From contig CALVSO010000003.1 in the NCBI GenBank assembly GCA_944359055.1, positions 4,832-68,831 on the forward strand: a stretch of 64,000 nucleotides of DNA, read 5' to 3'. This document shows, one piece after another, positions 1,728 through 56,701 of the stretch. Origin of the DNA: an uncultured Bacilli bacterium. GTDB lineage: Bacteria; Bacillota_I; Bacilli_A; RF39; UBA660. Position 1 is the stretch's first letter. Each line of letters opens with the position of its first letter. The notes beneath the pieces were generated by a model that made no database searches, was not told the origin of the DNA, and was given only the letters and a program-made list of their open reading frames with translations. A program made the position numbers and the translations under genes.

Positions 1728-1730
1728 AAA

Positions 1731-3767: not shown

Positions 3768-3809
3768 ACTATATCAACCCTATCTTTGACTCTTTTCTTA
3801 CTATATATA

Positions 3810-3838
3810 ATTTTACCATATTCGACATTTTTTTACAA
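3810..3838 (-). promoter_or_regulatory. candidate sigma-A promoter (TTGTAA-17-TAAAAT) with a Spo0A 0A box (TGTCGAA, 3821-3827) in the spacer; a hairpin plus U-run terminator lies just upstream at 3840-3864
   Basis: Reverse strand reads TTGTAA aaaaaTGTCGAAtatgg TAAAAT; the 0A-box consensus TGTCGAA is matched exactly. The hairpin AGAATG-tttaatc-CATTCT at 3847-3864 is followed by an 8-nt U-run on the minus transcript. Confidence 0.4.
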
Positions 3839-3863
3839 TACAAAAAATCAAAAAAAAGAATGT

Positions 3864-5474
3864 TTAATCATTCTCTTTAATTTCTTTAGCAACAATTTTT
3901 TCAACTTGCACAATAAACCAAATTTTTTCAATTGTTGTATCACTTTTTTCTATTTTATTTACTCTTAATATCAATAATATTTTATTAAGTAAATTTTTAA
4001 GATTATCTTCATTTAAATCATCTTCACTAATATTAATACTATTTAATCGATATTTATTACTAATTGTTTTAGCTATATTATTAGTAGAGAAAATTGGTAC
4101 TCCTGTAATAATAATATTAGTTGGATTCATTGCAAACAAATCAAAATTATCGCTATATTTAATAATTTCATCATAATCAGTTATATTATAAACTTTTTGA
4201 ATAGTTAATTTTTTGAAATAATCAAAACTATAATATAAGTTTAAAACATCAGATATAGTTAATGTATCATTTAATATCATCATTACTTTATCTTTGAAAT
4301 ATTCAATATCATAAGTTTTATATAACTCATATAATTCTTTTGCTTTTAAAACTGATTGTAATTTTAATTGTTTTAAAGCACTATCAGATCTAAATTCAAA
4401 TAATCCTGGTCGACCACTAAAGATTTTTTTATTTAATTTTTCTAATTCATTTTCTTTAGTTTCTATTTGATCAATAATAGTTTTTAAACCTTTATACTCT
4501 TTTTTATCAGTAGTTAATAATTTTTCATATTCATCTTTAAAATATTTGAACATCGGATAAAATTCTAAATAATTTTGATATTCTAAAATATTTAATTTTA
4601 ATTTTTCTAAAGCTGGCGCTACTTTATCAACATCAGTAACTTCTGGAATTAAAGAATCAAATGCTGTTTTGCGTCCTTTACTATCACTTAAATATTGTTC
4701 GATATCTAATTCTTTAGTTTTAGCCATAGCTATTATGTCACTAATAGTTTCTTTACTAGCCAAATTTAAATCAATATAAGCATCTTGTAATTTTTCTAAA
4801 CAGTGATTATAATCTTTAATTCTATTTTTCTCCATTACTTCTTTTTGTAACGTCAAAATATAATTATTTAATTTACGACTATTTTTCTTAATTAGTTTTC
4901 TAAAATTTAATTCAATATGTTGAATAAGTTCAGGATTTACCCAATAAATTTGTTCAAAAATTTCTGATACCTTATCATAGCTTTTTAATCTTCTATTTCT
5001 TACTTCTAAAAAAGCAGTCATATATTCATGAACATAACAAGTATAATTAAAATCATCACTTTCTAAATGAATACCTGCTTGTTCAAATTTATCTAATAAA
5101 CCATTTATTATTTCATTTAAAGATTTGAAATTAAATGTATCATAATTATTAATTTGATATAGTAAATCATCAAAACACATTTTTTCGACATAAGTATTAG
5201 TTGGATTTAAAAGAAATTTAACATTTTCTAAAGTTTCTAATTTTTCTGTTAATTTATCTATATCAGTTGATTCCTTAACTTCAAAACTTTTAGCTTTAGC
5301 AATTAAATAATTTCTAGTACTGGTTTTATATTCTTCATATCTTTCAATTATGTTATCAATTGTTTCATTAAATTTCTTTTTATTTGTTTTAGTTTTAGTA
5401 GGCATAGTGGAAATTAATGTTTTTTTTGCTTCAATATCTTTATTTATAAATTCTAAAAAATTATTCATCTTCAT
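3864..5474 (-). CDS. hypothetical cytoplasmic coiled-coil protein
   Basis: 536 aa ORF with no TM segment, K/E-rich with heptad-like stretches. Same strand and tight spacing with the surrounding locus. Confidence 0.45.
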   Translation of the reverse strand: MKMNNFLEFINKDIEAKKTLISTMPTKTKTNKKKFNETIDNIIERYEEYKTSTRNYLIAKAKSFEVKESTDIDKLTEKLETLENVKFLLNPTNTYVEKMCFDDLLYQINNYDTFNFKSLNEIINGLLDKFEQAGIHLESDDFNYTCYVHEYMTAFLEVRNRRLKSYDKVSEIFEQIYWVNPELIQHIELNFRKLIKKNSRKLNNYILTLQKEVMEKNRIKDYNHCLEKLQDAYIDLNLASKETISDIIAMAKTKELDIEQYLSDSKGRKTAFDSLIPEVTDVDKVAPALEKLKLNILEYQNYLEFYPMFKYFKDEYEKLLTTDKKEYKGLKTIIDQIETKENELEKLNKKIFSGRPGLFEFRSDSALKQLKLQSVLKAKELYELYKTYDIEYFKDKVMMILNDTLTISDVLNLYYSFDYFKKLTIQKVYNITDYDEIIKYSDNFDLFAMNPTNIIITGVPIFSTNNIAKTISNKYRLNSINISEDDLNEDNLKNLLNKILLILRVNKIEKSDTTIEKIWFIVQVEKIVAKEIKEND

Positions 5475-5604
5475 TTTCCTCTTCTAACTCTATTTTACTT
5501 TCAACTAAAAATTGCGAAAAATCTGTAATATTTTGATAAACTTCTATTAGTTCTTTTAAAGTTAGTGCCGATAAATCGAAATCTACTTTTTCTTCCCTTT
5601 TCAT
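5461..5604 (-). CDS. possible small acidic protein (47 aa), stop overlapping the start of the downstream gene
   Basis: Reverse-strand ORF MKREEKVDFDLSALTLKELIEVYQNITDFSQFLVESKIELEEENEDE, preceded by AAGGTGAT. Its stop overlaps the ATGAAGATGAAT start of the 536 aa gene. It falls below the ORF-track length cutoff, and the coordinates are accurate only to about 1 nt. Confidence 0.25.
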   Translation of the reverse strand: MKREEKVDFDLSALTLKELIEVYQNITDFSQFLVESKIELEEENEDE

Positions 5605-5620
5605 CTTATCACCTTTTCCC

Positions 5621-6667
5621 CTATTCATATCCTTGTGTATCTTTTAAGAAATTTAATGAAATATATATTTCAGCTCCATCAGAATCTGTTTCTAGACTAT
5701 CAATATCTTGTCCTTCAATCCAAACATACACTCTTGTTTTTGTTATACCATCTGGTACAGTAAATAATGGTTTTTCAAAATCATCATCAGTCATAGTTTC
5801 TTGTAATTCAAAATAATTTGGGTCAAGATTTGGTGAACCAGATACCGTATTTGCTACAAATATAGGACCACCTGCTCTTGTAAATGCATATGTTGGAAAC
5901 TCTTGTCCATCGATTAAATTAACGCCATATTTAGTAGCCCTTTCAATGGAAAGATTAGAATGCGCCTTACTATTTGGCTCAAAAATAATAGAATAACAAT
6001 TATTATTACATTCAATATTTTGAACTTCATTTGCTGGTGCATCTTTAGCAACAGATCCTAACTTAACAATACCAATACGAGCAGAATTTAATAAACCAAT
6101 CATTTCTTCTTCTGCATCTTTTTCCATTGTAATTGAAGTACCATATTCAAAATATAAATTATCGCTTACTGGAGATCCTGAATCATTTTTAAAAAACAAA
6201 TCAAATGCTATATAATTATTGTACTCATTTCTGCCACCTTCATGCATTAAATTAGTTCTTATATAACCATTATTTTTATCCTTATTTGGATATCTAACCC
6301 CACTACTTGAAAACATATTAAATATCGGACTATCATGATTAGTAATTCCATTTGAAGAAATAGGTACTAATCCACCACCTGCCCATTGACTTGTATTATT
6401 AGGATAAGTATATCTTAATCCTCTTATAAGTTCATCAGCAGATATAATTAAATCAGTATCAAAATTAATACCATCTAAAGAAATAGATAATCCAGTATTT
6501 TTTTTAACTGTCATAGTAAATGTTTTTACTCTAACATTTAAATTGGTTGAAAACCACGCATATGTTGAAAAAATAAGCAAAATACCTACTAATACCATAA
6601 CAGTGATAGTAACTTTTTTATTTGTTTTTTCGATAATTCTTTGTCTAAAAGTATTTTGTTTTTTCAT
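5621..6667 (-). CDS. secreted TasA/camelysin-like protein, paralogue class D (SipW-cognate type signal)
   Basis: N-terminus is a basic stretch, then an h-region, then FSTYAWFSTNLNV (compare TasA GGGTWAAFND). C-terminus TKTRVYVWIEGQDIDS is shared with the other paralogues. Confidence 0.6.
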   Translation of the reverse strand: MKKQNTFRQRIIEKTNKKVTITVMVLVGILLIFSTYAWFSTNLNVRVKTFTMTVKKNTGLSISLDGINFDTDLIISADELIRGLRYTYPNNTSQWAGGGLVPISSNGITNHDSPIFNMFSSSGVRYPNKDKNNGYIRTNLMHEGGRNEYNNYIAFDLFFKNDSGSPVSDNLYFEYGTSITMEKDAEEEMIGLLNSARIGIVKLGSVAKDAPANEVQNIECNNNCYSIIFEPNSKAHSNLSIERATKYGVNLIDGQEFPTYAFTRAGGPIFVANTVSGSPNLDPNYFELQETMTDDDFEKPLFTVPDGITKTRVYVWIEGQDIDSLETDSDGAEIYISLNFLKDTQGYE

Positions 6668-6696
6668 TTTTCACCACCTAATTAATAAAGGAAGAG

Positions 6697-6720
6697 TAAT
6701 TAACCAAATTACTCTTCTTT
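6697..6720 (-). terminator. intra-operon hairpin (AAGAGTAAT-taaccaa-ATTACTCTT) followed by a U-rich tract on the minus transcript, downstream of class B gene 6729-8030
   Basis: Perfect 9-bp inverted repeat seen in the sequence; the minus-strand RNA continues cuuccuuuauuaauu. Confidence 0.35.
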
Positions 6721-6728
6721 ATTATCAA

Positions 6729-8030
6729 TTATTCACCATTTGTTGGAGTAATATCTGTACTTGGTCCATCATAACCTGGAATATCAGATTCATTATATCT
6801 TTCTTTAGTGAATCCAAAATTAACTGTAATTTTCTTTCCTAATGAAGCAAAGTCGTAATTATCGATATCTTGTCCTTCAATCCAAATGTAAACTCTAACT
6901 TTTGTAATACTATTTGGAGCTAATGTCATAAATTGTGGACGATCTTTACCAGCAACATTTTTCATTGTATCAGTAAAGTATGGGAATTCAACTAAGTTAT
7001 ATGTATTTCTAACTCCAGCAACATAAGTTTCATAATCTACTGTGTTTTTTGTATAAGTATTGTAAGCTGCACCATCATAAATATTTACATTATCAGCAAT
7101 TTCAATATTATTACTAATTGCATATGTTGGATAAGCTGTACCATCTTTTACAGCAGTACATTTTGAACCAGCATTATATGAATCTGGATCATTAACATCG
7201 TCACCATCAGTAGAAGCTTTTCTTGTTAAACAAGATTTTTGATACCAATTAATAGCATTTTGTACGTGTTTAGTATCGTTTGGTTCCCAAATTTGAGCAT
7301 CTCTACAAATTCCAGTTACTTGAACTTGGCCATCAGCAGCAGGTACATTAGCACAAGTTATTTTTGTGATATTATCAGCTGAAGTTGTATCTGCTTTAAC
7401 ACGCCCGATTTGTGCGAAAGCAACTCTTACTGAATTTTCAATACCAGCTTTTTCTTTTCCACCATTTGCAGAAACTTTAACTTCTGAATTAGTAGTTAAA
7501 TAAATTGCTTCTTCATTTAATGGATTATTATCAGCATAATAAGCATTTCCTGATAAGTTTTTAATGAACAAGTCAAATGCTACATAACCATTTCCTTCTT
7601 CATATTCAACACCACCAGCATTTAAAGTTGTATGATTATCAACTTGTTCTGATAATAATCTATAACCACCTGTAACAGCAGTTAAACTTCCTTTTTCAAA
7701 TAATTTCATTCTTGATGAAGCTTTATCCATATCACCAACAGATGACATTGGAATTAAACCTTCTCCAGGTTGATCTAACCATTGATTAGCATTTCCTTCA
7801 TAAGGATCAGCATTTCTTGCATCTAATGTATATTTCCAGTTTTCTCCATCCATAGATAAGTATAAACCTTCTGTTGTTGCTATGTTAACACTAAATTCTG
7901 CAACATTAACAGTTTTCATACCAATAAACCATGCATATGTTGAAACTGATAATAAGATTGCACATAAAGAACAAATAGCAACTAAATCTCTAATTCTTTT
8001 ACTTTTTTTACTATTATGTTTTTTTGCCAT
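6729..8030 (-). CDS. secreted TasA/camelysin-like protein, paralogue class B (copy 2)
   Basis: N-terminus ...LCAILLSVSTYAWFIGMKTVNVAEFSV. Conserved core AGIENSVRVAFAQIGRV. C-terminus LAPNSITKVRVYIWIEGQDIDNYDFASLGKKITVNFGFTKE. GGAGG Shine-Dalgarno. Confidence 0.7.
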   Translation of the reverse strand: MAKKHNSKKSKRIRDLVAICSLCAILLSVSTYAWFIGMKTVNVAEFSVNIATTEGLYLSMDGENWKYTLDARNADPYEGNANQWLDQPGEGLIPMSSVGDMDKASSRMKLFEKGSLTAVTGGYRLLSEQVDNHTTLNAGGVEYEEGNGYVAFDLFIKNLSGNAYYADNNPLNEEAIYLTTNSEVKVSANGGKEKAGIENSVRVAFAQIGRVKADTTSADNITKITCANVPAADGQVQVTGICRDAQIWEPNDTKHVQNAINWYQKSCLTRKASTDGDDVNDPDSYNAGSKCTAVKDGTAYPTYAISNNIEIADNVNIYDGAAYNTYTKNTVDYETYVAGVRNTYNLVEFPYFTDTMKNVAGKDRPQFMTLAPNSITKVRVYIWIEGQDIDNYDFASLGKKITVNFGFTKERYNESDIPGYDGPSTDITPTNGE

Positions 8031-8057
8031 AATTTCCTCCTATATTTAAATTTTAGT

Positions 8058-8095
8058 AACCTAGAAGATTAATTAAAATCTTCTAGTTACTTTAA
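8058..8095 (-). terminator. intra-operon imperfect hairpin (AGTAACCTAGAAGAT...ATCTTCTAGTTACT) between the class A and class B genes; possible attenuator or processing/stability element
   Basis: About 14-bp stem with one bulge; only a weak A/U-rich tail follows on the minus transcript. Confidence 0.3.
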
Positions 8096-8098
8096 TAA

Positions 8099-9346
8099 TT
8101 ATTCACCTAATGTTGGTCTCTTATCAACATCACTTGGTAATTCAGGATCACCATCATAGTTGATATCTTCACCATATAATTGTTCTTTAGTAAATCCAAA
8201 TGAAAGTGAGATTTGTCCTCCTAATGAAGCAAAATCATAGTTATCAACGTCTTGTCCTTCAATCCAAATATAAACTCTAATTTTTGTAATACTATTTGGA
8301 GCTAAATAGAATAATTCTGGTCTTTCAGTTCCTTCTAAATTTTTCATTGTATCTGTGAATGTTGGAACTTTCATTAATTTACCTTTTGTAGCAGTCATAG
8401 CAACTGAAGCAGTATAACCATTGTATTCAGTACCATCATATACATCTACTTGATCAGTGTAATTAATTTCACCACTTACTGCATATGTTGGAACAAAAGT
8501 ACCATCAGTAACAGTACCACATGTACCACTAAATGAACTTGGATTAGTAATATCAGCCGCATTTCTCTTTAAGCATGATTTTTCATACCATTTAATAGCA
8601 TTATTTACGTGTTTTGTATCATTTGGTTCCCAAATTGTAGCATCTCTATTTGTACAAATACTAGAAACGCCATCACCACCTGTACAATTAATTCCTTGAA
8701 TTTTTGAAGTATTTTCTTCAGTTGCAACTACACGTCCAATTTGTGCGAAAGCAACTCTTACTGAATTTTCAATACCAGCTGTTTTTTGTCCAGCAGCACC
8801 AGTTTTAACAACTGATTGTGGAGTTAAATAAATTCCTTCTTCATTTTTTATATCAACTGTATCATAATAAGCATTTCCTGATAAGTTTTTAACAAATAAA
8901 TCAAATGCTACATACCCATCAACTTCTTTAGCACCAGTATTTTTTACTCTTGCAGCCATTACACGATAACCACCAGGTGATGCTGTAAAACTTCCTTTTT
9001 CATACATTATAAGTCTTGATGAATCAGTATCGATTTTTCCAACTGTTGACATTGGAATCAATCCTTTGCCACCCCAACTGTTTGTATTAGTCAAATATGT
9101 TCCTTTAACACCAGGATCACTATAATTACTTTCATTAATTGTTACTGTGTCACCGAAATTTTTACCATCTAATGAAAGTGATAAACCATCGATTGCAGCA
9201 ATTTCTACATCGAATGCGGTAACGTTAACAGTTTTCATACCAATAAACCATGCATAGGTTGAAACTGATAAAATAGTAGCACATAAACCAGCTCCAACAA
9301 GCAATCTTTTGACACGTTTTTCATGTCTTCTATTTCTTTTTTCCAT
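8099..9346 (-). CDS. secreted TasA/camelysin-like protein, paralogue class A (copy 2)
   Basis: N-terminus MEKRNRRHEKRVKRLLVGAGLCATILSVSTYAWFIGMKTVNVTAFDVEIAAIDGLSLSLDGKNF. C-terminus ITKIRVYIWIEGQDVDNYDFASLGGQISLSFGFTKE. Confidence 0.7.
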   Translation of the reverse strand: MEKRNRRHEKRVKRLLVGAGLCATILSVSTYAWFIGMKTVNVTAFDVEIAAIDGLSLSLDGKNFGDTVTINESNYSDPGVKGTYLTNTNSWGGKGLIPMSTVGKIDTDSSRLIMYEKGSFTASPGGYRVMAARVKNTGAKEVDGYVAFDLFVKNLSGNAYYDTVDIKNEEGIYLTPQSVVKTGAAGQKTAGIENSVRVAFAQIGRVVATEENTSKIQGINCTGGDGVSSICTNRDATIWEPNDTKHVNNAIKWYEKSCLKRNAADITNPSSFSGTCGTVTDGTFVPTYAVSGEINYTDQVDVYDGTEYNGYTASVAMTATKGKLMKVPTFTDTMKNLEGTERPELFYLAPNSITKIRVYIWIEGQDVDNYDFASLGGQISLSFGFTKEQLYGEDINYDGDPELPSDVDKRPTLGE

Positions 9347-9365
9347 ATGTACCTCTCTCTTTTCA

Positions 9366-10061
9366 TTAATTTTCTACGTACTCTGAATTGAAATCCATAT
9401 AAACAGAGAATTCTCCACCTAAAATATCATCTGTACATTCAGGATCACTACCTTCAACCCAAATGACAATTGTGTATTTATCGATATCTCCAGGTTTAAA
9501 ATCATCAACTTTATTACGAGCAACTAATTTTTCTTCTTCAAATGGAATAGTATCTGGCTCATTTCTTCCGTCAGAAGCTTTCTTAGCATACGTAACAGGT
9601 TGTCCATTTCGATAGACTCTAATTCTTACAGCACCGTCAATTTTTTTGATAACATCTGTGATAAAAAGTTCACTCCAATAGCTTGTAATTTCATCTCCAA
9701 CATTCTCAACAAAAAATGTATAAGCAAGGTATTCAGAACCATTATGAGAACCACCAGTAGAATCATCTAAATTATCAGGTAACCAATTACCAGATATATT
9801 AGTGAATGTTTTAGGCGAAGCAACTGATAATTCTGCTTGATACACTTTATAATTAGGATCATCGTAAATGATAATACCTCTACTAAAGTATAAATTTTTA
9901 TCCAGTGTTATACTAAAATTACCACTATTATAAATAATACCTATAACTAAATACAAAAGAATAAATAGGAAAAGAAATATTAATAAAGCTATTCTAAAGA
10001 TATTTTTAAGTTTTCTTTCATTTTTGATTTTCTTTGAACTAAGCTTAATCTTATCTTCCAT
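9366..10061 (-). CDS. membrane-anchored protein sharing the C-terminal WxEGxD domain, paralogue class C (copy 2)
   Basis: A basic N-terminus of about 20 aa, then a single TM helix, then NSGNFSITLDKNLYF...IIIYDD. C-terminus KYTIVIWVEGSDPECTDDILGGEFSVYMDFN. It is 231 aa, versus 230 aa for the copy at 19159-19851. Confidence 0.6.
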   Translation of the reverse strand: MEDKIKLSSKKIKNERKLKNIFRIALLIFLFLFILLYLVIGIIYNSGNFSITLDKNLYFSRGIIIYDDPNYKVYQAELSVASPKTFTNISGNWLPDNLDDSTGGSHNGSEYLAYTFFVENVGDEITSYWSELFITDVIKKIDGAVRIRVYRNGQPVTYAKKASDGRNEPDTIPFEEEKLVARNKVDDFKPGDIDKYTIVIWVEGSDPECTDDILGGEFSVYMDFNSEYVEN

Positions 10062-10126
10062 AACTCTACCCCTTCATATTACCCTATAAACTAGGGTCAC
10101 TATGATATTCTTTACAATACAATATA

Positions 10127-10154
10127 ATTATAACATACATATTTTTTTTGTCAA
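10127..10154 (-). promoter_or_regulatory. near-consensus sigma-A promoter for cassette 2 (TTGACA-16-TGTTATAAT, extended -10)
   Basis: Reverse strand reads TTGACAaaaaaaatatgtatgtTATAAT. About 47 bp, including the -10 and the leader, is conserved with 19874-19920. Confidence 0.55.
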
Positions 10155-10161
10155 TATAATA

Positions 10162-10178
10162 TGTCGATAATTGTCGAA
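10162..10178 (+). promoter_or_regulatory. tandem Spo0A-box-like motifs TGTCGAT (10162-10168) and TGTCGAA (10172-10178) in the divergent promoter region
   Basis: Exact 7-mer match to the Spo0A 0A box TGTCGAA, with a 6/7 copy 10 bp upstream. They sit upstream of the -35 for the minus-strand cassette and about 190 bp upstream of the plus-strand gene. Confidence 0.4.
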
Positions 10179-10363
10179 TTTAATTTTACTTTGTTTTTCT
10201 TTAGTTTACAATACTTTTTGTCAATCTTTTACATTATTTGAATATATTTATTAAATATTTTACACATATTGACACATATAAAATCATATTTTACATTTTT
10301 TTATTGATTTTATACATATATATATGTATAATAAAGATGTAAAAGAAGAAAGAAGGGTTTTAA

Positions 10364-10975
10364 ATGGCAATGAAATTTAAAATATTGTTAGTTATTAGTT
10401 CTTTGGCATTGACATTAAGTTTGATGAGTAATACTTATTCAAGATATGTTGCTGATGTTGATAGCAATATTGATTTGTTATTTGCTAAGTGGCAAATTTT
10501 AGTTAATGAAAATGATATTACCAATAATACTACAACTTCTATCAATATTACTCCAGTAATGGAAGAAAATGTTAACGTTGCTGAAAACACCGTTGCTCCT
10601 TCTTCTAAAGGTTATTTTGATATTGACATTGATCCATCTAATGCTGGTGTATCATTTGATTATTCAATCAACTTAAATATTGAAGATGAAAATATGCCTG
10701 ATTTAATGATTAGTAAATATGCAGTTTTAGATAAGGATTATAATGAAGGTGATCAAATAACTACAACCACTATTTTAAATAATACAATAGATGGAACTGT
10801 TGATTATAATGCTACAGCACATGAACCATTTACAGTAAGAGTTTTCTTTGAATGGTATGAAGGTGTTGATGAAAAAATGGATGATGAAGCTGATACAAAT
10901 ATAGGTTATGAAGCAGCTTTAAATGATAAATCATTATTAGTAAATGCGTCAATTAGTTTCAATCAAAAAATTTAA
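10364..10975 (+). CDS. small secreted protein of the same family (signal-like N-terminus ...LMSNTYSRYV; C-terminal FFEWYEGVDE motif)
   Basis: N-terminal hydrophobic signal; C-terminal motif VRVFFEWYEGVDE resembles the WIEGQD strand of the paralogues. Putative promoter TTGATT-17-TATAAT at 10304-10332. A hairpin terminator follows. Confidence 0.5.
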   Translation: MAMKFKILLVISSLALTLSLMSNTYSRYVADVDSNIDLLFAKWQILVNENDITNNTTTSINITPVMEENVNVAENTVAPSSKGYFDIDIDPSNAGVSFDYSINLNIEDENMPDLMISKYAVLDKDYNEGDQITTTTILNNTIDGTVDYNATAHEPFTVRVFFEWYEGVDEKMDDEADTNIGYEAALNDKSLLVNASISFNQKI

Positions 10976-11033
10976 GAGATTAAAAAATCTCTTTTTTTTA
11001 TACATAAAAAAACACAATTTTATTGTGTTTTAT
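10975..11033. terminator. two adjacent hairpin terminators (AGAGATT-aaaaa-AATCTCT plus T-run; AAACACAAT-ttt-ATTGTGTTT) separating convergent genes
   Basis: Inverted repeats with flanking A and T runs are seen directly in the sequence. Confidence 0.6.
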
Positions 11034-11563
11034 TCTTCTACATCTACTTCATCACCATATTTAATTTCAACTATTAATGCATATAATTCATAAATAAAGA
11101 TTAAGAAACATGGTACTAATACGATAAATAAGAAGCCCCATTGTGATTCAATAATTCCTAAAACATTTCCAATATCATTATATACTTTAGTAGGTCTACC
11201 AATCAAATATTTAATTGAATATGTTTCACCATTTTCAAATGTAAGATAATCATCCATAACTTCTCCAACTTTGCCAATATTTATATCAGCAGTTTTAGAC
11301 ATCTTATCAACTTTATAAACAAATACTTCTTCACCTTTTTGTAAATTTTCTGGCGCTGCTGCTTCAACTAAAACTAAATCACCTTTTTGATATTCTTCAT
11401 GACTTACTTTATCTTTTAAAATTACTAATGAAGTTTCACCAAATACTGTTACTCGATAATCATTGAAATTTAATAATAAAATTGTCATAAATAATGCAAA
11501 AGTAAAATAAACAATTCCCAATGTTACTAATAATACTTTTTTTATTTTTTTTAAAACTTTCAT
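11030..11563 (-). CDS. divergent SipW-like signal peptidase I paralogue (possibly catalytically degenerate)
   Basis: N-terminal TM anchor. YQKGDLVLVE...APENLQKGEEVFVY aligns with SipW NTGDLILVK...NPDDLQKGDIITF. The SGSM and THR catalytic motifs are not clearly conserved. Confidence 0.45.
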   Translation of the reverse strand: MKVLKKIKKVLLVTLGIVYFTFALFMTILLLNFNDYRVTVFGETSLVILKDKVSHEEYQKGDLVLVEAAAPENLQKGEEVFVYKVDKMSKTADINIGKVGEVMDDYLTFENGETYSIKYLIGRPTKVYNDIGNVLGIIESQWGFLFIVLVPCFLIFIYELYALIVEIKYGDEVDVEE

Positions 11564-11572
11564 ACTTCCTCC

Positions 11573-12430: not shown

Positions 12431-12959
12431 CTAACTTCTGCCAACTATTTATTTCTACATCAATGAAATCAGCTAAATTTGTATATTCTAATGAATTATA
12501 TTCACTAGGGAATGTTACTTTTAATTTATAATTATCTAATATTTCATTTGTATGTTCTAGTGTTTGAATTGAAGAATTACATACTAATTCATTTTTTTCA
12601 TTTCTTGAGTAAGTTTCATCACATTTCATTATTAATTCTTCTGTTTCCCCTACTTTATATAATTCAATATCTAATGGCATAAAATGAAATGTTTTAATAG
12701 TAATTTGATATTCAACTGTTACATTACTTAATTCATTATCTTTATTAGTAACTGAAAATAAGTATTCTTCATTACTACCAGGATTTAAATTACTTAGATT
12801 TAATTCTAAATGATTCAATTGTTTACTTTCAAATACAAATTTAGCGATTTTTTGATCTACTTTTACATTACTGTTAGAATTAAACATTGAATATGTAACA
12901 CCAGTACCTAAAAATATAGTTATTAAAATAAACAAAATTATTAATACTTTATGTTTCAT
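12423..12959 (-). CDS. TasA/camelysin family protein (peptidase M73-like fold)
   Basis: GVTYSMFNSNSNVKVDQKIAKFVFESKQLNHLELNLSNLNPGSNEEYLFSVTN aligns with B. subtilis TasA GGGTWAAFNDIKSKDATFASGTLDLSAKENSASVNLSNLKPGDKLTKDFQFEN. Confidence 0.75.
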   Translation of the reverse strand: MKHKVLIILFILITIFLGTGVTYSMFNSNSNVKVDQKIAKFVFESKQLNHLELNLSNLNPGSNEEYLFSVTNKDNELSNVTVEYQITIKTFHFMPLDIELYKVGETEELIMKCDETYSRNEKNELVCNSSIQTLEHTNEILDNYKLKVTFPSEYNSLEYTNLADFIDVEINSWQKLGD

Positions 12960-12968
12960 GATTTCCTC

Positions 12969-15900
12969 CTATCTAACAATAAATTTCTTTTCGATTGTTC
13001 CTATTTTAGTTGTACCATCATATAATTCAAATACAAATTTGTAACCACCTAACATATTTTTAAGTTCTAATTTGTTAGGTAATTCATAAATATTATCAGT
13101 TATTTTGTTTAATTTTGTAGTAGTATAATTACTTAAATCAACTAATGAATAATCTTGATTATAAGCTGATAAAACTTGTTTCTTATATAATGAAACTCTT
13201 ACAGTTGGATTAGTAAAATTACCAGTTTTAATTATGTCAAAATCAATTATATTGTCTGTTATAACATTATTAAATGATACATCAAATCCATAATCAATTG
13301 TAACATTGTTAGTTACAGTTACTGGAACAGTTATTTCATTACTATATGAATTAGCATATTTTCCATCATAAGATGCAAGTGCTTTTATTTTAAAGTAATA
13401 AGTGCCTGTTTCTAATTTGCTATTATCAACTGAAGTAGTTATTTCTAAATTACCAATAGCAGGTATTCTAACTATACCATCATTATTTGGTGAGTATTCT
13501 TTTCCATTTACTTTAAATGTTAAATTTTTTAAATATTCTTTATTTACTATATTTCCATTTTTATCAACTAAACTAACATTTAATCCCATTATTTTATCTT
13601 CATATGTTGTATCATTTATTTGTTTATCATTTATAAAATCATATACTAAATTACTTGTAATATCAATTGTATTAGTAGAATCACTATTATAAATAATTGT
13701 ATCACTATAATTAGAACTAATATTTATACTAGCACTACTTTCATAAATATTAAATGGTTTTAAAGTAGTTGTTAAAGTTTTAATTACACTATCTTGATTG
13801 TTTAATTCCATAGCTATTTTAATATCTTCAATATCAGTTATATCAGTGTTTTTAAAATCTAAAACAATAGTAAAATTCTCATTTATTTGATTTGTATAAT
13901 TATCTTCACTAAATAAAGTATCACTACCTACTTCTTTAAATAAAGTTAAATTATAAATTGTATCTTGTTTGTCAACTGTATATGTATATACTTTATTTTG
14001 GTTGTTATCAATTAAAGTTATTTTTGTATTAAGTGGTAAGGAAGTATTAGATACAATACTATGTGTTTTTCCTTCGTTATAATTATAACTTGATTGATAA
14101 CTTACATTTAAAGTAATAGATGATTTATTTGTTATATAATTTGTAGTAAAGTTATTATTTCTACCAGCATTTAAACTATTAATACTATAACCATCAAATA
14201 TTATATATTCACTATTAACATAAGTAATATAATCAGCATTATCAATTACTTTAACATATAAAATATAAGTACCTTTATTATTAATCGTTATTTTATCATT
14301 ATAAGCATTCCAACTAACACTATCTAATTTATCTTCATTTATTATTTCATTAGATAAATAATATTCTACACTTTTAATACCAGATAAATTATCAATAGCA
14401 GTTATTGTTAAATCGGTATTTTCATTTATATAATTTTTAATAGTTGGATTATTTAATTTATTCCAAGTCTTATCATTCATATTAATAGTAACATCAGAAC
14501 CAGATAAATCCACTATAATTAAATCAGAATTTAAATAATAGATATTATCATTATTATCGACTACTTTAGCATATATAACATATTTACCTTCATTATTTAA
14601 TTCAACTATATTTTCATAATTACTAAAAGTTAAATTTTGTATTTCTTCTTTTGTTAATTCTTTATCACTAATATAATAACTAACTTCTTTAAATGGTCTT
14701 AATGGATCAATTTGTTCGATACTAAAAGCAGTTGCTTTATTAAACTTAATTGAATTTAATTCGTATCCTAAATTGTTCCATGAATATGTTCCCACATGAA
14801 TATTAGCAATTGGATTATTTATATCATCAGTAGCTAATATAGGAAAACTTCCTTCTTCATAAACCCAAACATTTTCTGCGTTACTAGTTAAATCAGTACT
14901 ATCAATAAATTCATTAAATTGTAAATTATTAATAACAAATTCTTTATCTTTTAAATTATTAATATCTGTTAAAGTAACAGTTCCAAATATACTTCCTTCA
15001 TTGGTTATTTCACCATCAGTATAATAAGAATTTTTAAAATTAACAACACTACTTACAATAGAATTTACTAAATATGTTGTTTCTGTTGCAAAAGAATTAT
15101 TAATAGTTAAATTACCATTTGTAACATTATTAATTAAATGAGTAACATTACCTGTACTATAAACTTTATTTAGTGTTCCTTTACCATGAAGTTTATTAAT
15201 TAATCCAGATGTTTTATCACCTGATAATGTTCCGTTATTATATGATTTATTAATTGTAATATCATTAGTATATCCTACTAAACCAACACTATTTTTACCT
15301 ATAATATTAGCTTTATTAATAACATTATTTAAAGTAATTTTATCAGCCTTAGCAACTATTCCACTACTAATACCATAATTATAAGTTACATCATAAGTTA
15401 AATTATCTAATGTTATATTAGTATCTATAACTATTTTACTAATATTTCCTAAATCGAGACTGAAATCACCAGTTACTTCATTATTATTAATTTTTATTTT
15501 ATTTTCACCAATGCTACCTTTAATTGTAACATTAATTATATCACCTTTTATATAAGGAATCATTATATTAGAAAAATTAGATATTGTAGGAACATTAAAT
15601 GTTTCTGTTTTAGTTAATTCTTCATTTGTACCAACAACATAACCATTATATAAAACATTAGTTATATTACAATTAGTAGCACTAGAAGCAATTCCTGCAG
15701 TAATATTACCACCATAAATCATAGAATTTTCAACATACAAATTACTTACATTACCACTTAAATTAGTAAATAAACCAACTTCTTCATTTTCACTAGAAAT
15801 ATATAAACCATATATTCTAAAATAATTACCATCTAAATTACCCTTAAAATTATTTAATGATTCAAATAAATTAATAGATTTTATTTTAGTGCCAGTTTTA

Positions 15901-16298
15901 TCTACATTATCATATATTTCATTAGTATTTTCTTTTACATAAAAGGTTGTATTATTTAATTTATATTTAATACCTTCTTCATCATAACTAAATATACCAT
16001 CATTTAAAACAATATCCTTATTTAACTCAAAATATGTATCAGCATAATCAGTAGTTTTTAACATTTGCGCAAAATAAGCTAATTCATTACCATTAGAAAT
16101 AATATAAGGATCATCAATTGTACCACTACCACTTCGATAACTAGTAGCTACATTACCATCCCAAACTTCAATATCTTTAATAGTATTTCTATTTTTATAT
16201 CTTGCCAAACTAGGTATCATAATTGAACAAATCAATATTAAGCCTAAAATTAAAATTAAATAATTTTGCTTAGGTATTTTTTTCAATAAATCTTTCAT
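12969..16298 (-). CDS. large N/T-rich secreted surface protein: SipW-like signal, parallel beta-helix N-cap motif, tandem Ig-like repeats
   Basis: Signal ...IMIPSLARYKNRNT. DPYIISNGNELAYFAQMLKTTDYADTYFELNKDIVL resembles the cap of right-handed beta-helix adhesin or pectate-lyase-like domains. There are two repeats of about 95 aa (GKYVIYAKVVDNNDNIYYLNSDLIIVD and GTYILYVKVIDNADYITYVNSEYIIFD). No LPXTG motif. Confidence 0.6.
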   Translation of the reverse strand: MKDLLKKIPKQNYLILILGLILICSIMIPSLARYKNRNTIKDIEVWDGNVATSYRSGSGTIDDPYIISNGNELAYFAQMLKTTDYADTYFELNKDIVLNDGIFSYDEEGIKYKLNNTTFYVKENTNEIYDNVDKTGTKIKSINLFESLNNFKGNLDGNYFRIYGLYISSENEEVGLFTNLSGNVSNLYVENSMIYGGNITAGIASSATNCNITNVLYNGYVVGTNEELTKTETFNVPTISNFSNIMIPYIKGDIINVTIKGSIGENKIKINNNEVTGDFSLDLGNISKIVIDTNITLDNLTYDVTYNYGISSGIVAKADKITLNNVINKANIIGKNSVGLVGYTNDITINKSYNNGTLSGDKTSGLINKLHGKGTLNKVYSTGNVTHLINNVTNGNLTINNSFATETTYLVNSIVSSVVNFKNSYYTDGEITNEGSIFGTVTLTDINNLKDKEFVINNLQFNEFIDSTDLTSNAENVWVYEEGSFPILATDDINNPIANIHVGTYSWNNLGYELNSIKFNKATAFSIEQIDPLRPFKEVSYYISDKELTKEEIQNLTFSNYENIVELNNEGKYVIYAKVVDNNDNIYYLNSDLIIVDLSGSDVTINMNDKTWNKLNNPTIKNYINENTDLTITAIDNLSGIKSVEYYLSNEIINEDKLDSVSWNAYNDKITINNKGTYILYVKVIDNADYITYVNSEYIIFDGYSINSLNAGRNNNFTTNYITNKSSITLNVSYQSSYNYNEGKTHSIVSNTSLPLNTKITLIDNNQNKVYTYTVDKQDTIYNLTLFKEVGSDTLFSEDNYTNQINENFTIVLDFKNTDITDIEDIKIAMELNNQDSVIKTLTTTLKPFNIYESSASINISSNYSDTIIYNSDSTNTIDITSNLVYDFINDKQINDTTYEDKIMGLNVSLVDKNGNIVNKEYLKNLTFKVNGKEYSPNNDGIVRIPAIGNLEITTSVDNSKLETGTYYFKIKALASYDGKYANSYSNEITVPVTVTNNVTIDYGFDVSFNNVITDNIIDFDIIKTGNFTNPTVRVSLYKKQVLSAYNQDYSLVDLSNYTTTKLNKITDNIYELPNKLELKNMLGGYKFVFELYDGTTKIGTIEKKFIVR

Positions 16299-16350
16299 AA
16301 ATATCTTCCTTTACCACTTATTTATTCTTTAACTTTTCTACCTTATATCA

Positions 16351-16379
16351 ATTATAACATAATTCGACATCTTTTGCAC
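16351..16379 (-). promoter_or_regulatory. promoter for the large-protein operon: extended -10 TGTTATAAT, weak -35 (GTGCAA), Spo0A 0A box TGTCGAA (16363-16369) in the spacer/-35 region
   Basis: Reverse strand reads GTGCAAaagaTGTCGAAttatgtTATAAT. The arrangement resembles Spo0A-activated sigma-A promoters, which have poor -35 elements. Confidence 0.45.
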
Positions 16380-16385
16380 CTATTT

Positions 16386-16415
16386 TCAAAAAAAATATCA
16401 CACAAATTGTGTGAT
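16386..16415. terminator. bidirectional intrinsic terminator (ATATCACACAA-at-TTGTGTGATAT, flanked by A8 and T4)
   Basis: Perfect 11-bp inverted repeat downstream of the class B1 gene. Confidence 0.6.
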
Positions 16416-16423
16416 ATTTTAAA

Positions 16424-17740
16424 TTATTCATTTGTTGTTGGAACATCTGGTCCATCATAATCAGGGAAATCTGATTGATTGTATCTTTCTTTAGTGAATC
16501 CAAAGTTAATAGTAATTTTCTTTCCTAAAGATGCGAAATCATAGTTATCAATATCTTGTCCTTCAATCCATACATAAACTCTTAATTTAGTAATACTATT
16601 TGGAGCTAAAGTCATAAATTGTGGACGATCTTTACCTTCAACATTTTTCATTGTATCAGTAAAGTATGGGAATTCAATTAATTTCATTGCACCTTTTTGT
16701 CCTGGTTGTGTTCCTTCTGCAGCAGCATTGTATTCTGCTAATGTATTAGTATTAGCTGTATATTTATTATAAGCAGTACCATCATAAATATTAACATTAT
16801 CATCAATTCCAATTGTTCTACTAATAGCATATGTTGGATAAGCAGTTGTTTTATTTAATGTTTTACATGGTGTAGCATCAGTATAAGATGCGCTTGAATT
16901 AACATCTGCACCAGTTCTTTCTAAACATGATTCATTATACCAATTAATAGCATTTTGTACGTGTTTAGTATCATTTGGTTCCCAAATTTGAGCATCTCTA
17001 CAAATACCTGTAACATGTTCTGGATCTTCTGCATCATCTAAACTATCAGCACAAGTCATACTTGTTACTAATTTTTGATTTTCTGTTACATCTGTATCTA
17101 AAGCAGCACTTACACGACCTAATTGAACAAATCCAACTCTTACAGAATTTTCAATACCAGCTTTACCTTCACCATCTAAAGCAACTGTAACAGCTGAATT
17201 AGTATTTAAATAAATTGCTTCTTCATTTTTGACATTATTTTCTGGATAATAAGGATTTCCTGATAAGTTCTTAACAAATAAGTCAAATGCAATATAACCA
17301 TCACCTTCAACATATTCTTTTGAACTAGTTGATCCACCTACTTGTTTAGTATGGTTGTCAACTCGACTAGATAACAATCTATAACCACCTGTAACAGCAG
17401 TTAAACTTCCTTTTTCATATAACTTCATTCTTGATGAAGTTGCATCCATTTCACCAATTGAAGACATTGGAATTAAACCTTGTTTAGGTTGATCTAACCA
17501 TTGATTTGCATTTCCATCATAAGCTGGTGCATTTTTTGCATCTAATGTATATGACCAATCCTTACCATTCATTGATAAGAATAAGCCTTCGGTTGTTGCA
17601 ATATTAATGTCGAATTCTGTTACATTAACAGTTTTCATACCTATAAACCATGCATAAGTTGAAACTGATAATAAAATAGCACATAAAGCACAAAGAGTAA
17701 TCAGATTTCTTACTTTTTGATTTTTCTTTCTTCTTTTCAT
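16424..17740 (-). CDS. secreted TasA/camelysin-like protein, paralogue class B (copy 1)
   Basis: N-terminus MKRRKKNQKVRNLITLCALCAILLSVSTYAWFIGMKTVNVTEFDINIATTEGL. C-terminus ITKLRVYVWIEGQDIDNYDFASLGKKITINFGFTKE. A 49/50-nt tract is identical with copy 2 (16952-17001 versus 7261-7310). Confidence 0.7.
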   Translation of the reverse strand: MKRRKKNQKVRNLITLCALCAILLSVSTYAWFIGMKTVNVTEFDINIATTEGLFLSMNGKDWSYTLDAKNAPAYDGNANQWLDQPKQGLIPMSSIGEMDATSSRMKLYEKGSLTAVTGGYRLLSSRVDNHTKQVGGSTSSKEYVEGDGYIAFDLFVKNLSGNPYYPENNVKNEEAIYLNTNSAVTVALDGEGKAGIENSVRVGFVQLGRVSAALDTDVTENQKLVTSMTCADSLDDAEDPEHVTGICRDAQIWEPNDTKHVQNAINWYNESCLERTGADVNSSASYTDATPCKTLNKTTAYPTYAISRTIGIDDNVNIYDGTAYNKYTANTNTLAEYNAAAEGTQPGQKGAMKLIEFPYFTDTMKNVEGKDRPQFMTLAPNSITKLRVYVWIEGQDIDNYDFASLGKKITINFGFTKERYNQSDFPDYDGPDVPTTNE

Positions 17741-17750
17741 TTTATACCTC

Positions 17751-19169
17751 CTAATTTATTGTCCATATATCATCTACTCGCGTAGCTGTTTTTTTAACTC
17801 CACCATCTTTGAATGTAAATTTAGTCATCCAACTTGGTAAAGTAAATTCCTTTTTGTCATTATCATAAGTAATTTTTGAATTTGAAATATCAGTTATTTC
17901 ACCAGTATTAACATAAGATACTGTTTGGTCTCTAACTACATCATCTGGTAATTCTGGATCACCATCATAATCGATATCTTCTCCATAGAATCTTTCTTTA
18001 GTAAATCCAAATGATACAGAGATCTTTCTTCCTAACGAAGCAAAATCATAGTTGTCTATATCTTGTCCTTCTATATAAATATAGATTCTTACCTTAGTAA
18101 TACTATTTGGAGCAAGTGTTATAAAATCAGGTCTATTAACTCCTTCATTAAACTTATCAGTATCAGTAAAGTAATCTACTTTGTATAGTTTACCTTTTTG
18201 ATATGAATTTGCTATTGATTTAGTATAGCCATTATATTCTTTACCATCATACACATCAATTTGATCTGTATAATCAATAACTCCACTTACTGCATAAGTT
18301 GGATAATAAATTCCATCTTTAATAGTTTTACAAGGTCCACTAAATGAAGCAGGATTAGTTATATCACTGCCAATTCTTTTACGACATGATGTTGTATACC
18401 AACTAATAGCATTAGTAACATGTTTAGTGTCATTAGGTTCCCAAATTTGAGCGTCCCTATCAGCACATATACCAGTAACATCATCATCAGATTTACAAGT
18501 AATGCCTGTAATAACATCAACATCGTCTTCTACTGCTATAACACGTCCGATTTGTGCGAAAGCTACTCTTACAGAATTTTCAATACCAGCTTTTATTTCT
18601 CCATCTTCAGCAACTTTTACTTCTGATTCTGGATCTAAATAAATTGCTTCTTCGTTTTTTGGATTTAATTCTTTATAGTATGCATGTCCTGATTTATTTT
18701 TAATAAATAAATCAAATGCTACATATCCATCAACTTCTTTAGCGCCAGTATTTTCTACTATTGCAGCCATCACACGATAACCACCAGGTGATGCTGTAAA
18801 ACTTCCTTTTTCATACATTATAAGTCTTGATGAGCCAGTATCAATCTTACCAACTGATGAAACAGGAACTAATCCTTTGCCACCCCAACTGTTAGTGTTT
18901 CCAGGATAACTTACAGTTTTATGATTTTCTTCATTAATCGTTACTGTTGTTTCCCAATTCTTACCATCTAACGATAATAATAAACTATCAATAGCAGCAA
19001 TAGAAACATCAAAACTAGAAACATTAACAACCTTCATACCAATAAACCATGCATAAGTTGAAACGGTTAGAATAATCGTACATAAAACAGCAGCAACAAG
19101 TAATTTTTTTACTCTTGTTTCATGTTTTTTCTTACGTCTTTTCATAATCCCTTCTTTCTTATTCTGCAT
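17751..19169 (-). CDS. secreted TasA/camelysin-like protein, paralogue class A (copy 1) with a 55 aa C-terminal extension; the real start is probably the second Met (about 19145)
   Basis: ...LLVAAVLCTIILTVSTYAWFIGMKVVNVSSFDVSIAAIDSL. The other paralogues begin at the basic MKRRKK segment, and GAAGGGA precedes that internal ATG. Confidence 0.7.
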   Translation of the reverse strand: MQNKKEGIMKRRKKKHETRVKKLLVAAVLCTIILTVSTYAWFIGMKVVNVSSFDVSIAAIDSLLLSLDGKNWETTVTINEENHKTVSYPGNTNSWGGKGLVPVSSVGKIDTGSSRLIMYEKGSFTASPGGYRVMAAIVENTGAKEVDGYVAFDLFIKNKSGHAYYKELNPKNEEAIYLDPESEVKVAEDGEIKAGIENSVRVAFAQIGRVIAVEDDVDVITGITCKSDDDVTGICADRDAQIWEPNDTKHVTNAISWYTTSCRKRIGSDITNPASFSGPCKTIKDGIYYPTYAVSGVIDYTDQIDVYDGKEYNGYTKSIANSYQKGKLYKVDYFTDTDKFNEGVNRPDFITLAPNSITKVRIYIYIEGQDIDNYDFASLGRKISVSFGFTKERFYGEDIDYDGDPELPDDVVRDQTVSYVNTGEITDISNSKITYDNDKKEFTLPSWMTKFTFKDGGVKKTATRVDDIWTIN

Positions 19170-19851
19170 CTATTGGCTTAAAATTCATACGAACTTTAAA
19201 TTCACCACCTAAAATATTATCAGTACAATCAGGATCTTCGCCTTCAATCCATAAAACTATTGTATACTTGTCAATATCGTTAGGTTTAAAATTAGTAACA
19301 TCTTCACTCATGATTATTTTATTATCAATAAATGGAACTGTATTTGGTTCTACTTCTCCTTCACTTGATAATTTTGCATAAGTTTGATATTCTCTATTCT
19401 TATAAATTCTAACTCTGATGGCAGCATCAACATTCTTGATAACATCATCGATAATAACCTCTCTAGTATAACCAGCAACTTCATCTCCAGTATTTTCAAT
19501 ATAAAATGTATATACTAAATAACTATCGCCATTATGTGATCCACCTTCGTAATCTTTGATTTCTTCCGGTAACCATATTTCCTTAATACTATTAAAAGTT
19601 TCAGGAGCTTTAGCTAATAATTCTGTACGATATACTTTATATTGAAAATCATCATAAATAATTATGCCATTATCCAAATAAAGATTTTTATCGAGTGTTA
19701 TGCTAAAATTACCATTATTATAAACAATACCCATTACAAAATATAAAATAAGTAAAAGTAAAAGTAATAATATCACAACTAGTTTAAATCTTTTCTTAAG
19801 TTTTTTTTCTTTTTTTAATTTATCGGTAGTTTTAGTAAATTTACTTTCCAT
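19159..19851 (-). CDS. membrane-anchored WxEGxD-domain protein, paralogue class C (copy 1)
   Basis: 230 aa; MESKFTKTTDKLKKEKKLKK, then a TM helix, then NNGNFSITLDKNLYLDNGIIIYDD. C-terminus KYTIVLWIEGEDPDCTDNILGGEFKVRMNF. Confidence 0.6.
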   Translation of the reverse strand: MESKFTKTTDKLKKEKKLKKRFKLVVILLLLLLLILYFVMGIVYNNGNFSITLDKNLYLDNGIIIYDDFQYKVYRTELLAKAPETFNSIKEIWLPEEIKDYEGGSHNGDSYLVYTFYIENTGDEVAGYTREVIIDDVIKNVDAAIRVRIYKNREYQTYAKLSSEGEVEPNTVPFIDNKIIMSEDVTNFKPNDIDKYTIVLWIEGEDPDCTDNILGGEFKVRMNFKPIDAE

Positions 19852-19904
19852 CTTTTACCTACACCCCTTTTTGTACACTACGATATCCTTTACAATACAA
19901 TATA

Positions 19905-19956
19905 ATTATAACATACTTACTTTTTTTGTCAATATTAATTGTCAATGATTGTCGAA
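19905..19956 (-). promoter_or_regulatory. near-consensus sigma-A promoter for cassette 1 (TTGACA-16-TGTTATAAT; -10 at 19905-19910, -35 at 19927-19932) with upstream TGTCAAT, TGTCGAA (19950-19956) and TGTCAT repeats
   Basis: Reverse strand reads atgacatttttCGACAAtcaTTGACAAttaataTTGACAaaaaaagtaagtatgtTATAAT. A perfect 0A-box 7-mer is present, and the leader is conserved with cassette 2. Confidence 0.5.
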
Positions 19957-20025
19957 AAATGTCATATATGTTATTTAGCAATAAAAAAAGTCAAATGTTA
20001 TAATTTGACAATTATTCTTTATTAA

Positions 20026-20790: not shown

Positions 20791-20800
20791 AAAATCCCCC

Positions 20801-56353: not shown

Positions 56354-56701
56354 TTATAGTGTGAACATTATTTTTTCAGTAGATTTAGCAACATATCTTG
56401 TTCCTTTTTTGTAACTAAAACTATCTACTCCTTTAATTAATCCAATTGTTCCAATACTAATTAAATCATCAACATCATTTTTTTTATGATCATATTTTTT
56501 TACAATATGAGCTACTAATCTTAAGTTGTGTTCAATCAATTTATTACGTGCTTCTTTATCTCCTAAATGCATTAAGGATACACATTTTTCTTCCTCTTCT
56601 TTTGATAATGGATCAGGAAATACATTATTTGAATAAGCTGCTGTAAAAATATAAAAGTCTTTAAACAATTTTTTTAATAATTCTAACATAACACACCTCA
56701 A
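56354..56701 (-). pseudogene. truncated duplicate of the sigK 5' region (promoter, RBS and first 101 codons nearly identical, then decayed)
   Basis: 99/101 identical residues with 53820-54524. The upstream leader (56702-56760) is near-identical to 54525-54585. It diverges after KKGTR through a 9-bp deletion plus substitutions. Confidence 0.7.

Follow-up and report, generated by a model that had tools for sequence, protein, structure and literature searches.

A secreted-protein locus and its promoters

The window analysed here is a 64-kb stretch of DNA (24% G+C) from an uncultured Bacilli bacterium of the RF39 lineage (contig CALVSO010000003.1), and its left part (189–19851) is occupied by genes that lie nearly all on the minus strand and nearly all lack a Pfam family. 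Our subject is the heptamer TGTCGAA, the canonical core of the Spo0A binding site (0A box), which occurs at the promoters of this locus. By inspection, many of the encoded proteins begin with a transmembrane helix and, behind it, a T-Y-A-W-F-like motif, the signature of a signal peptide of the SipW/TasA type. In all, the locus comprises at least nine secreted proteins, one AAA+-like protein, and three peptidase-like genes, including a gene of 187 amino acids (aa) beyond the left edge of the window.

Exact TGTCGAA is found six times in the window against 1.71 expected, and none of 100 dinucleotide-preserving shuffles contained six or more copies. All six are confined to positions 3821–19956, and four of them fall in intergenic promoter regions (P = 7e-4 for at least four of six copies within the intergenic 8.5% of the window). 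The initial annotation listed these four with correct coordinates and strands, at 3821 (minus), 10172 (plus), 16363 (minus), and 19950 (plus), and omitted two copies inside open reading frames, at 5184–5190 (minus) and 17608–17614 (plus). It also put the chance expectation at about five. That mononucleotide estimate would favor a reading of the sites as chance matches in AT-rich intergenic DNA, multiplied by duplication of a promoter, but it ignores CpG depletion, and the dinucleotide-aware value is about a third as large. Each of the four intergenic boxes lies no more than 120 base pairs (bp) from a start codon, within or adjoining the best promoter matches, and each is an exact 7-bp 0A core. 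This core, with its contact bases G2, C4, and G5, is common to Bacillus and Clostridioides difficile Spo0A (PMC3485338).

Two of the boxes stand between the −35 and −10 elements of their promoters. The first belongs to a two-gene operon (189–3767, minus strand) encoding a 678-aa fusion of a SipW-like signal peptidase with a large unknown domain (1731–3767, minus; Peptidase_S24 match of 24.6 bits against a cut-off of 23.3) and a 512-aa membrane-anchored P-loop/AAA+-like protein (189–1727, minus). Upstream of this SipW-fusion operon, a predicted sigma-A promoter (3810–3838, minus) consists of a −35 TTGTAA (3833–3838), a 17-nucleotide (nt) spacer, and an extended −10 TGGTAAAAT (3810–3818), the TTGTAA-17-(TGG)TAAAAT arrangement first described for it. 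The perfect box at 3821–3827 (minus) is oriented forward with respect to transcription at about −24 to −18 and lies 5 nt upstream of the −10 hexamer. The second is found at a four-gene operon (11030–16298, minus) encoding secreted proteins of 1109, 178, and 285 aa and a 177-aa archaeal-type signal peptidase I-like protein, whose match is weak and below cut-off. The promoter of this operon (16351–16379, minus) has a weak −35, GTGCAA (16374–16379), a 17-nt spacer, and an extended −10, TGT-TATAAT (16351–16359), which bears out the initial description of it; its box at 16363–16369 (minus) is again forward, in the spacer at about −25 to −19, and 6 nt upstream of the −10 hexamer. A terminator hairpin of the neighboring cassette B is located just upstream of this promoter, at about 16397–16419.

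The remaining two boxes precede a pair of paralogous cassettes, A (6729–10061, minus; proteins of 231, 415, and 433 aa) and B (16424–19851, minus; proteins of 230, 472, and 438 aa). Their promoters, at 10127–10154 and 19905–19932 (both minus), each combine TTGACA (10149–10154 in cassette A), a 16-nt spacer, and TGT-TATAAT (10127–10135 in cassette A), as the initial annotation had it. Both cores match the consensus at 12 of 12 positions and carry the TG extension in addition, and they are the only 12/12 promoter matches in the region. In cassette A, TGTCGAT (10162–10168) and TGTCGAA (10172–10178) form a tandem pair on the plus strand, 10 bp apart as previously noted, reversed with respect to transcription and beginning 14 and 24 nt upstream of the −35. 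Cassette B has a phased array of three boxes (19940–19966, plus), in which imperfect TGTCAAT (19940–19946) and TGTCATA (19960–19966) flank a perfect TGTCGAA (19950–19956); all three are likewise reversed and upstream of the −35. Alignment reveals that the two promoter regions are paralogous and near-identical from the distal box to about +25. The boxes at 10172 and 19950 thus represent one homologous site, and therefore the four placements, although all at promoters as claimed, amount to three independent ones. The paralogy of two of the four sites is the other point that a chance reading has in its favor.

Downstream of cassette A, between the 433-aa and 348-aa genes, a hairpin with an 11-bp stem and a weak T-run (6691–6717, minus) could be a partial terminator separating the cassette from the 348-aa and 536-aa genes, neither of which showed a 0A box or an obvious promoter.

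No Pfam family was assigned to the 231-aa, 415-aa, or 433-aa proteins of cassette A. Database homologs number 749 for the 231-aa protein and 3077 for the 433-aa protein, none of them named. The 415-aa and 433-aa proteins bear SipW-type signal peptides (STYAWF). The 433-aa subunit was modelled confidently by AlphaFold (predicted local distance difference test score 82.5) as a beta-rich structure; neither Foldseek nor sequence comparison matched it to a PDB entry, and its similarity to TasA is limited to the signal peptide. Compared with TasA/camelysin (Peptidase_M73) operons, the locus shares a SipW-type signal peptidase, while its subunits fall outside the family. On these grounds we class it as a SipW-dependent locus for secreted, fibre-like proteins and not as a member of the TasA family; we refer to its genes below as fibre genes.

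Directly upstream of cassette B (20026–22741) are genes for a prepilin peptidase (PilD) and a 646-aa PilC (T2SSF). In Clostridium perfringens, secretion of the matrix proteins of a SipW operon (bsa) requires type IV pilus genes (PMC11580942), and by analogy the adjacency of pilD and pilC may be functional. The 512-aa protein carries a Walker A motif, GISGTGKTS, and a DEMNLA motif, and appears McrB/AAA+-like by eye. Just beyond the left edge of the window (L081, 11557–14475), the 512-aa gene is followed by genes for a DUF2357 protein, an S26-like peptidase of 187 aa, and a protein of 403 aa. A McrBC-like pair is an odd component of a secretion locus.

Conservation of the boxes in related loci

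A scan of a genome collection with the 231-aa family recovered 80 loci from metagenome-assembled genomes (MAGs) labelled uncultured Bacilli, Tenericutes, or Mollicutes, with some of these labels being wrong. One locus comes from Candidatus Coprovivens, a genus placed in order RF39 (PMC8035907). Boxes were compared across 76 related loci from MAGs of RF39-type uncultured gut Bacilli, with cassette promoters dereplicated (n = 65). Phylogenetically, these loci are not independent of one another, and the counts that follow therefore overstate the number of independent events; this weighs against the reading of the boxes reached below. Gene order is strongly conserved (231, 472/415, 433, 348, 536, 1109, 178, 285, small peptidase), as are the SipW-fusion gene followed by the 512-aa gene, a pair syntenic with fibre genes in many loci, and a divergent 203-aa gene. 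The proteins are only 50–65% identical among loci, and intergenic DNA outside the boxes cannot be aligned.

Of the 65 cassette promoters, 41 have a perfect box in reversed orientation (TTCGACA when read with transcription) no more than 45 nt upstream of the −35; in 1000 shuffles the mean was 0.08 and the highest count was 3. Only one box in this region was forward (41 reversed vs 1), and box starts cluster at −13/−14, −23/−24, and −34/−35 relative to the −35 hexamer. Six further cassette promoters have a forward box within the spacer instead, and the box sits between a perfect −35 and −10 in L006, L063, L065, L075, and L076. Fourteen are boxless at both positions, with the core promoter unchanged. 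Loci without a box are L013, L017, L029, L044, L046, L057, and L060. The recurrent variants TGTCGTA and TGTCGAT retain G2, C4, and G5, and TT is preferred on the 5′ side of the box.

The in-spacer boxes are also maintained. Orthologs of the SipW-fusion promoter carry a perfect in-spacer box in six of ten cases and a box with one mismatch at the same spot in two more, and the architecture TTGTAA-N6/7-TGTCGAA-TA-TGnTAAAAT is repeated in L007, L015, L033, L040, L052, L061, and L073. For the 1109-aa operon, the composite GTGCAAAAAATGTCGAATTATGTTATAAT is kept among orthologs, in the form GTGCAAAAAA-TGTCGAA-TTA-TGTTATAAT. The box is perfect in 4 of 26 of these promoters, and about seven more have a one-mismatch version (TGTCGTA, TGTCAAA, TATCGAA) at the same position.

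In 1.14 Mb of DNA (the window together with the related loci), 84 copies of TGTCGAA fall in the 102 kb of intergenic sequence and 50 in the 1.04 Mb that is coding. Its intergenic count ranks first among 180 composition-matched heptamers containing CG (control median 3.5, ~24× lower), with the runners-up being shifted versions of TGTCGAA itself or pieces of the conserved leader. The motif is commoner at the promoters of the locus than elsewhere, being enriched in the window and in the related loci alike. A perfect box was found upstream of 71 of 285 fibre genes and of 3 of 183 non-fibre genes, and non-fibre coding DNA of the related genomes shows a background of about 0.25 per 10 kb. Within coding sequence overall, the density of TGTCGAA equals the median for composition-matched heptamers. 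One of the two intragenic copies in the window (5184–5190, minus) lies inside the 536-aa gene, in whose orthologs boxes occur at scattered positions; the other (17608–17614, plus) is antisense inside the 438-aa gene (codons E-F-D-I). Conservation of position was looked for in orthologs of both and not found. Because of this, and because coding density is at the control median, both are taken as chance: the first is probably non-functional and the second is probably a chance occurrence.

The intergenic boxes present a different picture. Since their position and orientation are kept across loci whose proteins are only 50–65% identical, the comparison argues that they are functional, evolutionarily maintained cis-elements. 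A chance origin for them is correspondingly most improbable: it is effectively refuted by the intergenic enrichment, by the footprint across distant orthologs, and by the contrast between fibre and non-fibre genes.

Two further conserved elements accompany the boxes. A 19-nt element (TTGTATTrTAAAGrATATC) begins 3–4 nt after the cassette −10 and spans the start site and early transcript; in the window it is TTGTATTGTAAAGAATATC, at 10104–10122 in cassette A with a copy at 19882–19900 in cassette B (both minus), directly downstream of the −10. It has orthologs in about 50 loci and is kept even in species without a 0A box. Rfam yielded no match to it, returning only two tRNAs elsewhere and an insignificant match, and RNAalifold found no covarying RNA structure in it. 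The element may serve as the operator of a second regulator or, in RNA, as a binding site for a protein. In the divergent intergenic region at about 10200–10300, upstream of the 203-aa gene (10364–10975), TTTACA is the most enriched hexamer (34 copies vs 3.7 expected in 20 orthologous regions), and its copies are often in tandem, 10–11 bp apart. From their sequence, these repeats look like the site of a second repeat-binding regulator.

Spo0A as the candidate reader of the boxes

The three non-fibre genes with a perfect upstream box are exactly those at the head of spoIIAA-sigF-spoVAC-spoVAD operons in L052, L066, and L072, which are all such operons captured. In each, a forward box stands 26–27 nt upstream of a −10, and in L052 and L072 a second box (TGTCGAA, TGTCGAT) lies 26–27 bp further upstream. 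The spoIIAA-sigF operon is a classic target of Spo0A. Judged by sequence, these boxes are an internal positive control and the strongest evidence that the motif is read by Spo0A.

In all three of these operons sigF comes directly after spoIIAA, and no spoIIAB intervenes (L052 17945–20375, L066 16236–18675, L072 12398–14814). This agrees with an earlier report that spoIIAB is reduced or absent in RF39, a lineage predicted to include sporulating species (PMC10868615). Such spoIIAB-less operons raise the question of how SigF stays inactive.

The organism from which the window derives carries late-sporulation genes and has a sporulation programme, as indicated by the genes for full-length SigK (302.8 bits vs an equivalog cut-off of 298.65), GerQ, YabP, and YqfQ. 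The initial annotation named sigK, yabPQ, and gerQ; sigK, gerQ, and yabP are indeed present, while yabQ is represented only by a weak match below the Pfam cut-off. Besides the intact sigK (53820–54524, minus), there is a truncated 5′ copy (56354–56701, minus), a 115-aa open reading frame 93% identical over 112 aligned residues, with zinc-ribbon genes between the two. This second copy may be the scar of a skin-like element or of a duplication.

One point against Spo0A as the reader is that a tblastn search with a Bacillus subtilis Spo0A query did not find spo0A in the window, in the 80 loci (1.2 Mb), or in 10 kb of left and about 5 kb of right flanking sequence. Another is that the spoIIAA control comes not from the window species itself but from relatives whose 231-aa proteins are only 51–54% identical to that of the window, and in all three of them spoIIAA adjoins the fibre locus. 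In a separate search, no homologs of abrB or sinR were found in the window and related loci, and the supplement of PMC10868615 yielded no matches for per-family spo0A calls. We infer the presence of spo0A in the window organism.

The failure to observe spo0A, together with the position of the boxed spoIIAA operons beside the fibre locus, is what another regulator would have to recommend it. In that case a different protein, either specific to the locus or of the OmpR/PhoB type (for example the one encoded at 26924–27589), would read TTCGACA direct repeats whose likeness to 0A boxes is coincidental, and direct repeats of 10–11 bp abutting the −35 are also typical of the OmpR/PhoB family. We consider this improbable. 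The core matches the Spo0A consensus at seven of seven positions, its G/C positions are the most conserved, and its sole non-fibre targets are spoIIAA-sigF promoters. No credible DNA-binding domain was detected in the conserved locus proteins with Pfam at E up to 1, and the two-component pair of the window is not syntenic with the locus elsewhere, a homolog of its response regulator (RR221) being found only in L016. The box was also considered as a sigma-H −10 element (CGAAT) and rejected, there being no AGGA-type −35 at the right distance.

Spo0A is thus the most plausible reader of the boxes on present sequence comparisons. We infer from the sequence, its conservation, and the spoIIAA control that phosphorylated Spo0A (Spo0A~P) binds these predicted sites. 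Direct control of the locus by Spo0A, with its sign left open, is likely.

Sign of the regulation and comparison with known systems

Should Spo0A control the locus directly, we think it somewhat more probable that it represses than that it activates. The initial annotation saw a 0A box near the −35 of weak sigma-A promoters, as at activated genes, a picture that fits poorly: the cassette cores are consensus throughout, and the boxes at 3821 and 16363 are in the spacer, 4–7 nt from the −10 across orthologs. Repression is favored because the cassette promoters, perfect and TG-extended, would be strong unaided and are unchanged in boxless species, and because the variable distance from in-spacer box to −10 suits occlusion better than a fixed activating contact. 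It is favored further by the reversal of the cassette boxes relative to those of spoIIAA, and by the succession of a perfect box and a flanking imperfect box toward the −35, which mirrors the A2b promoter of phage phi29. The geometry typical of occlusion is present in the two in-spacer boxes, and the layout of the cassettes is compatible with it.

We hypothesize that the three transcription units of this fibre-like locus belong to the genes that Spo0A controls directly in a spore-forming gut bacillus of the RF39 type. At the SipW-fusion/AAA+ and 1109-aa operons, Spo0A~P bound to a high-affinity in-spacer box near the extended −10 would occlude RNA polymerase. At the cassettes, the perfect box and its flanking perfect or degenerate boxes, phased at about 10 bp upstream of the −35, would bind oligomers of Spo0A~P, which would block upstream contacts between the polymerase alpha subunit's C-terminal domain (alpha-CTD) and the UP element, or spread onto the −35, as at phi29 A2b. 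The net effect would be strong vegetative expression of the locus that is shut down as Spo0A~P rises. High-affinity Spo0A sites of B. subtilis respond at low Spo0A~P, and if that rule holds here, the perfect boxes predict an early, low-threshold response.

Other points count against repression. The strict phasing of the cassette boxes at about 10 bp, centered near −46/−56, also suits an activator, these being typical activator positions. The −35 of the 1109-aa operon is poor and could need help. In B. subtilis, perfect-consensus boxes are found at both activated and repressed low-threshold genes. The initial annotation proposed that Spo0A~P activates the locus when cells turn to biofilm formation or to sporulation, and Spo0A does promote matrix production in Bacillus (PMC10134886). 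Activation by the same boxes is nonetheless the less favored alternative and rather unlikely. Cassette promoters of this strength, with the same core where boxes are absent, would leave an activator unneeded; their boxes are reversed with respect to the presumably activating box of spoIIAA; and a box lies in the spacer not only of the SipW-fusion and 1109-aa promoters but also between perfect −35 and −10 elements in the five cassette promoters named above.

In architecture, the closest analogues are the early phi29 promoters A2b and A2c. At A2b, Spo0A blocks the binding of alpha-CTD to the UP element, and at A2c it excludes RNA polymerase (PMC2731898). The likeness lies in strong sigma-A promoters with a consensus and an imperfect box upstream of the −35 or over the core. 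The phi29 promoters, however, belong to a phage genome, unlike the chromosomal structural-gene locus considered here, where repression is the proposed outcome. The phi29 box also lies 26 bp upstream of the −35, whereas the cassette A boxes start 24 and 14 nt upstream of its first base.

B. subtilis abrB carries head-to-tail tandem 0A boxes with a spacing of about 10 bp. Similar features are perfect tandem cores about 10 bp apart, as in the arrangement at 10162/10172, and the high affinity and response to low Spo0A~P to be expected of them; the abrB boxes, in contrast, are downstream of the transcription start, where those of the present locus precede the −35 or lie within the spacer. A perfect consensus core box is on record for the abrB promoter (PMC3485338). 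A further precedent is the sin locus of C. difficile, which Spo0A represses directly through reversed 0A-like boxes (TTCTACA) upstream of the promoter (PMC7643835). Reversed boxes upstream of the promoter of a non-sporulation locus are common to both cases, whereas sin encodes regulators and the present locus encodes secreted structural proteins.

Spo0A-activated B. subtilis promoters of the spoIIG/spoIIE type have over-long spacers and boxes that overlap the −35. What they share with the present promoters is the combination of sigma-A elements and 0A boxes in the promoter region. The features that define the type are absent here: spacers measure 16–17 nt, cores are close to perfect, and boxes lie elsewhere. 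The cassettes read TTGACA-16-TGTTATAAT with boxes upstream, and at the SipW-fusion and 1109-aa promoters the spacer is 17 nt long and the box occupies about −25 to −18.

AbrB is one of the intermediaries through which Spo0A of B. subtilis controls tapA-sipW-tasA. Spo0A also reaches that operon indirectly, via SinI/SinR/SlrR (PMC10134886). Both tapA-sipW-tasA and sipW-bsaA-bsaB-bsaC of C. perfringens resemble the present locus in pairing a SipW-type peptidase with several secreted proteins bearing T-[FYW]-A-x-F, and in their link to the Spo0A network (PMC10134886). The bsa system is similar also in its type IV pilus connection (PMC11580942), given the pilD and pilC genes adjacent here. Neither Spo0A nor AbrB is mentioned in the paper on C. 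perfringens sipW-bsaA (PMC7395162). The present locus differs in being much larger and in its subunits, which have no Pfam family and resemble TasA only in the signal peptide.

The box itself is a standard 0A box and so a known kind of device. What is new is the proposed target, a secreted-protein locus that is very widespread and unannotated, together with the host lineage of uncultured RF39-type Bacilli and the directness of the proposed link to Spo0A. We suggest, tentatively, that the locus encodes an undescribed multi-subunit, SipW-processed surface fibre or matrix apparatus that is wired directly and anciently to Spo0A in RF39-type gut Bacilli by operators within its promoters, which would set it apart from Bacillus, in which TasA is under only indirect control by Spo0A.

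Human and animal guts commonly harbor RF39 and related uncultured Bacilli, whose regulation has seen little experimental work. The present result offers a testable piece of the RF39 Spo0A regulon, with spoIIAA-sigF as its positive control. The promoter grammar (reversed boxes in phase ahead of the −35, or a forward in-spacer box) could also serve for predicting which genes of MAGs Spo0A targets. If our reading is true, fibre production and sporulation or transmission would be mutually exclusive or tightly sequenced in these reduced-genome symbionts, and production of a surface structure would be tied to the sporulation decision, which underlies transmission from host to host.

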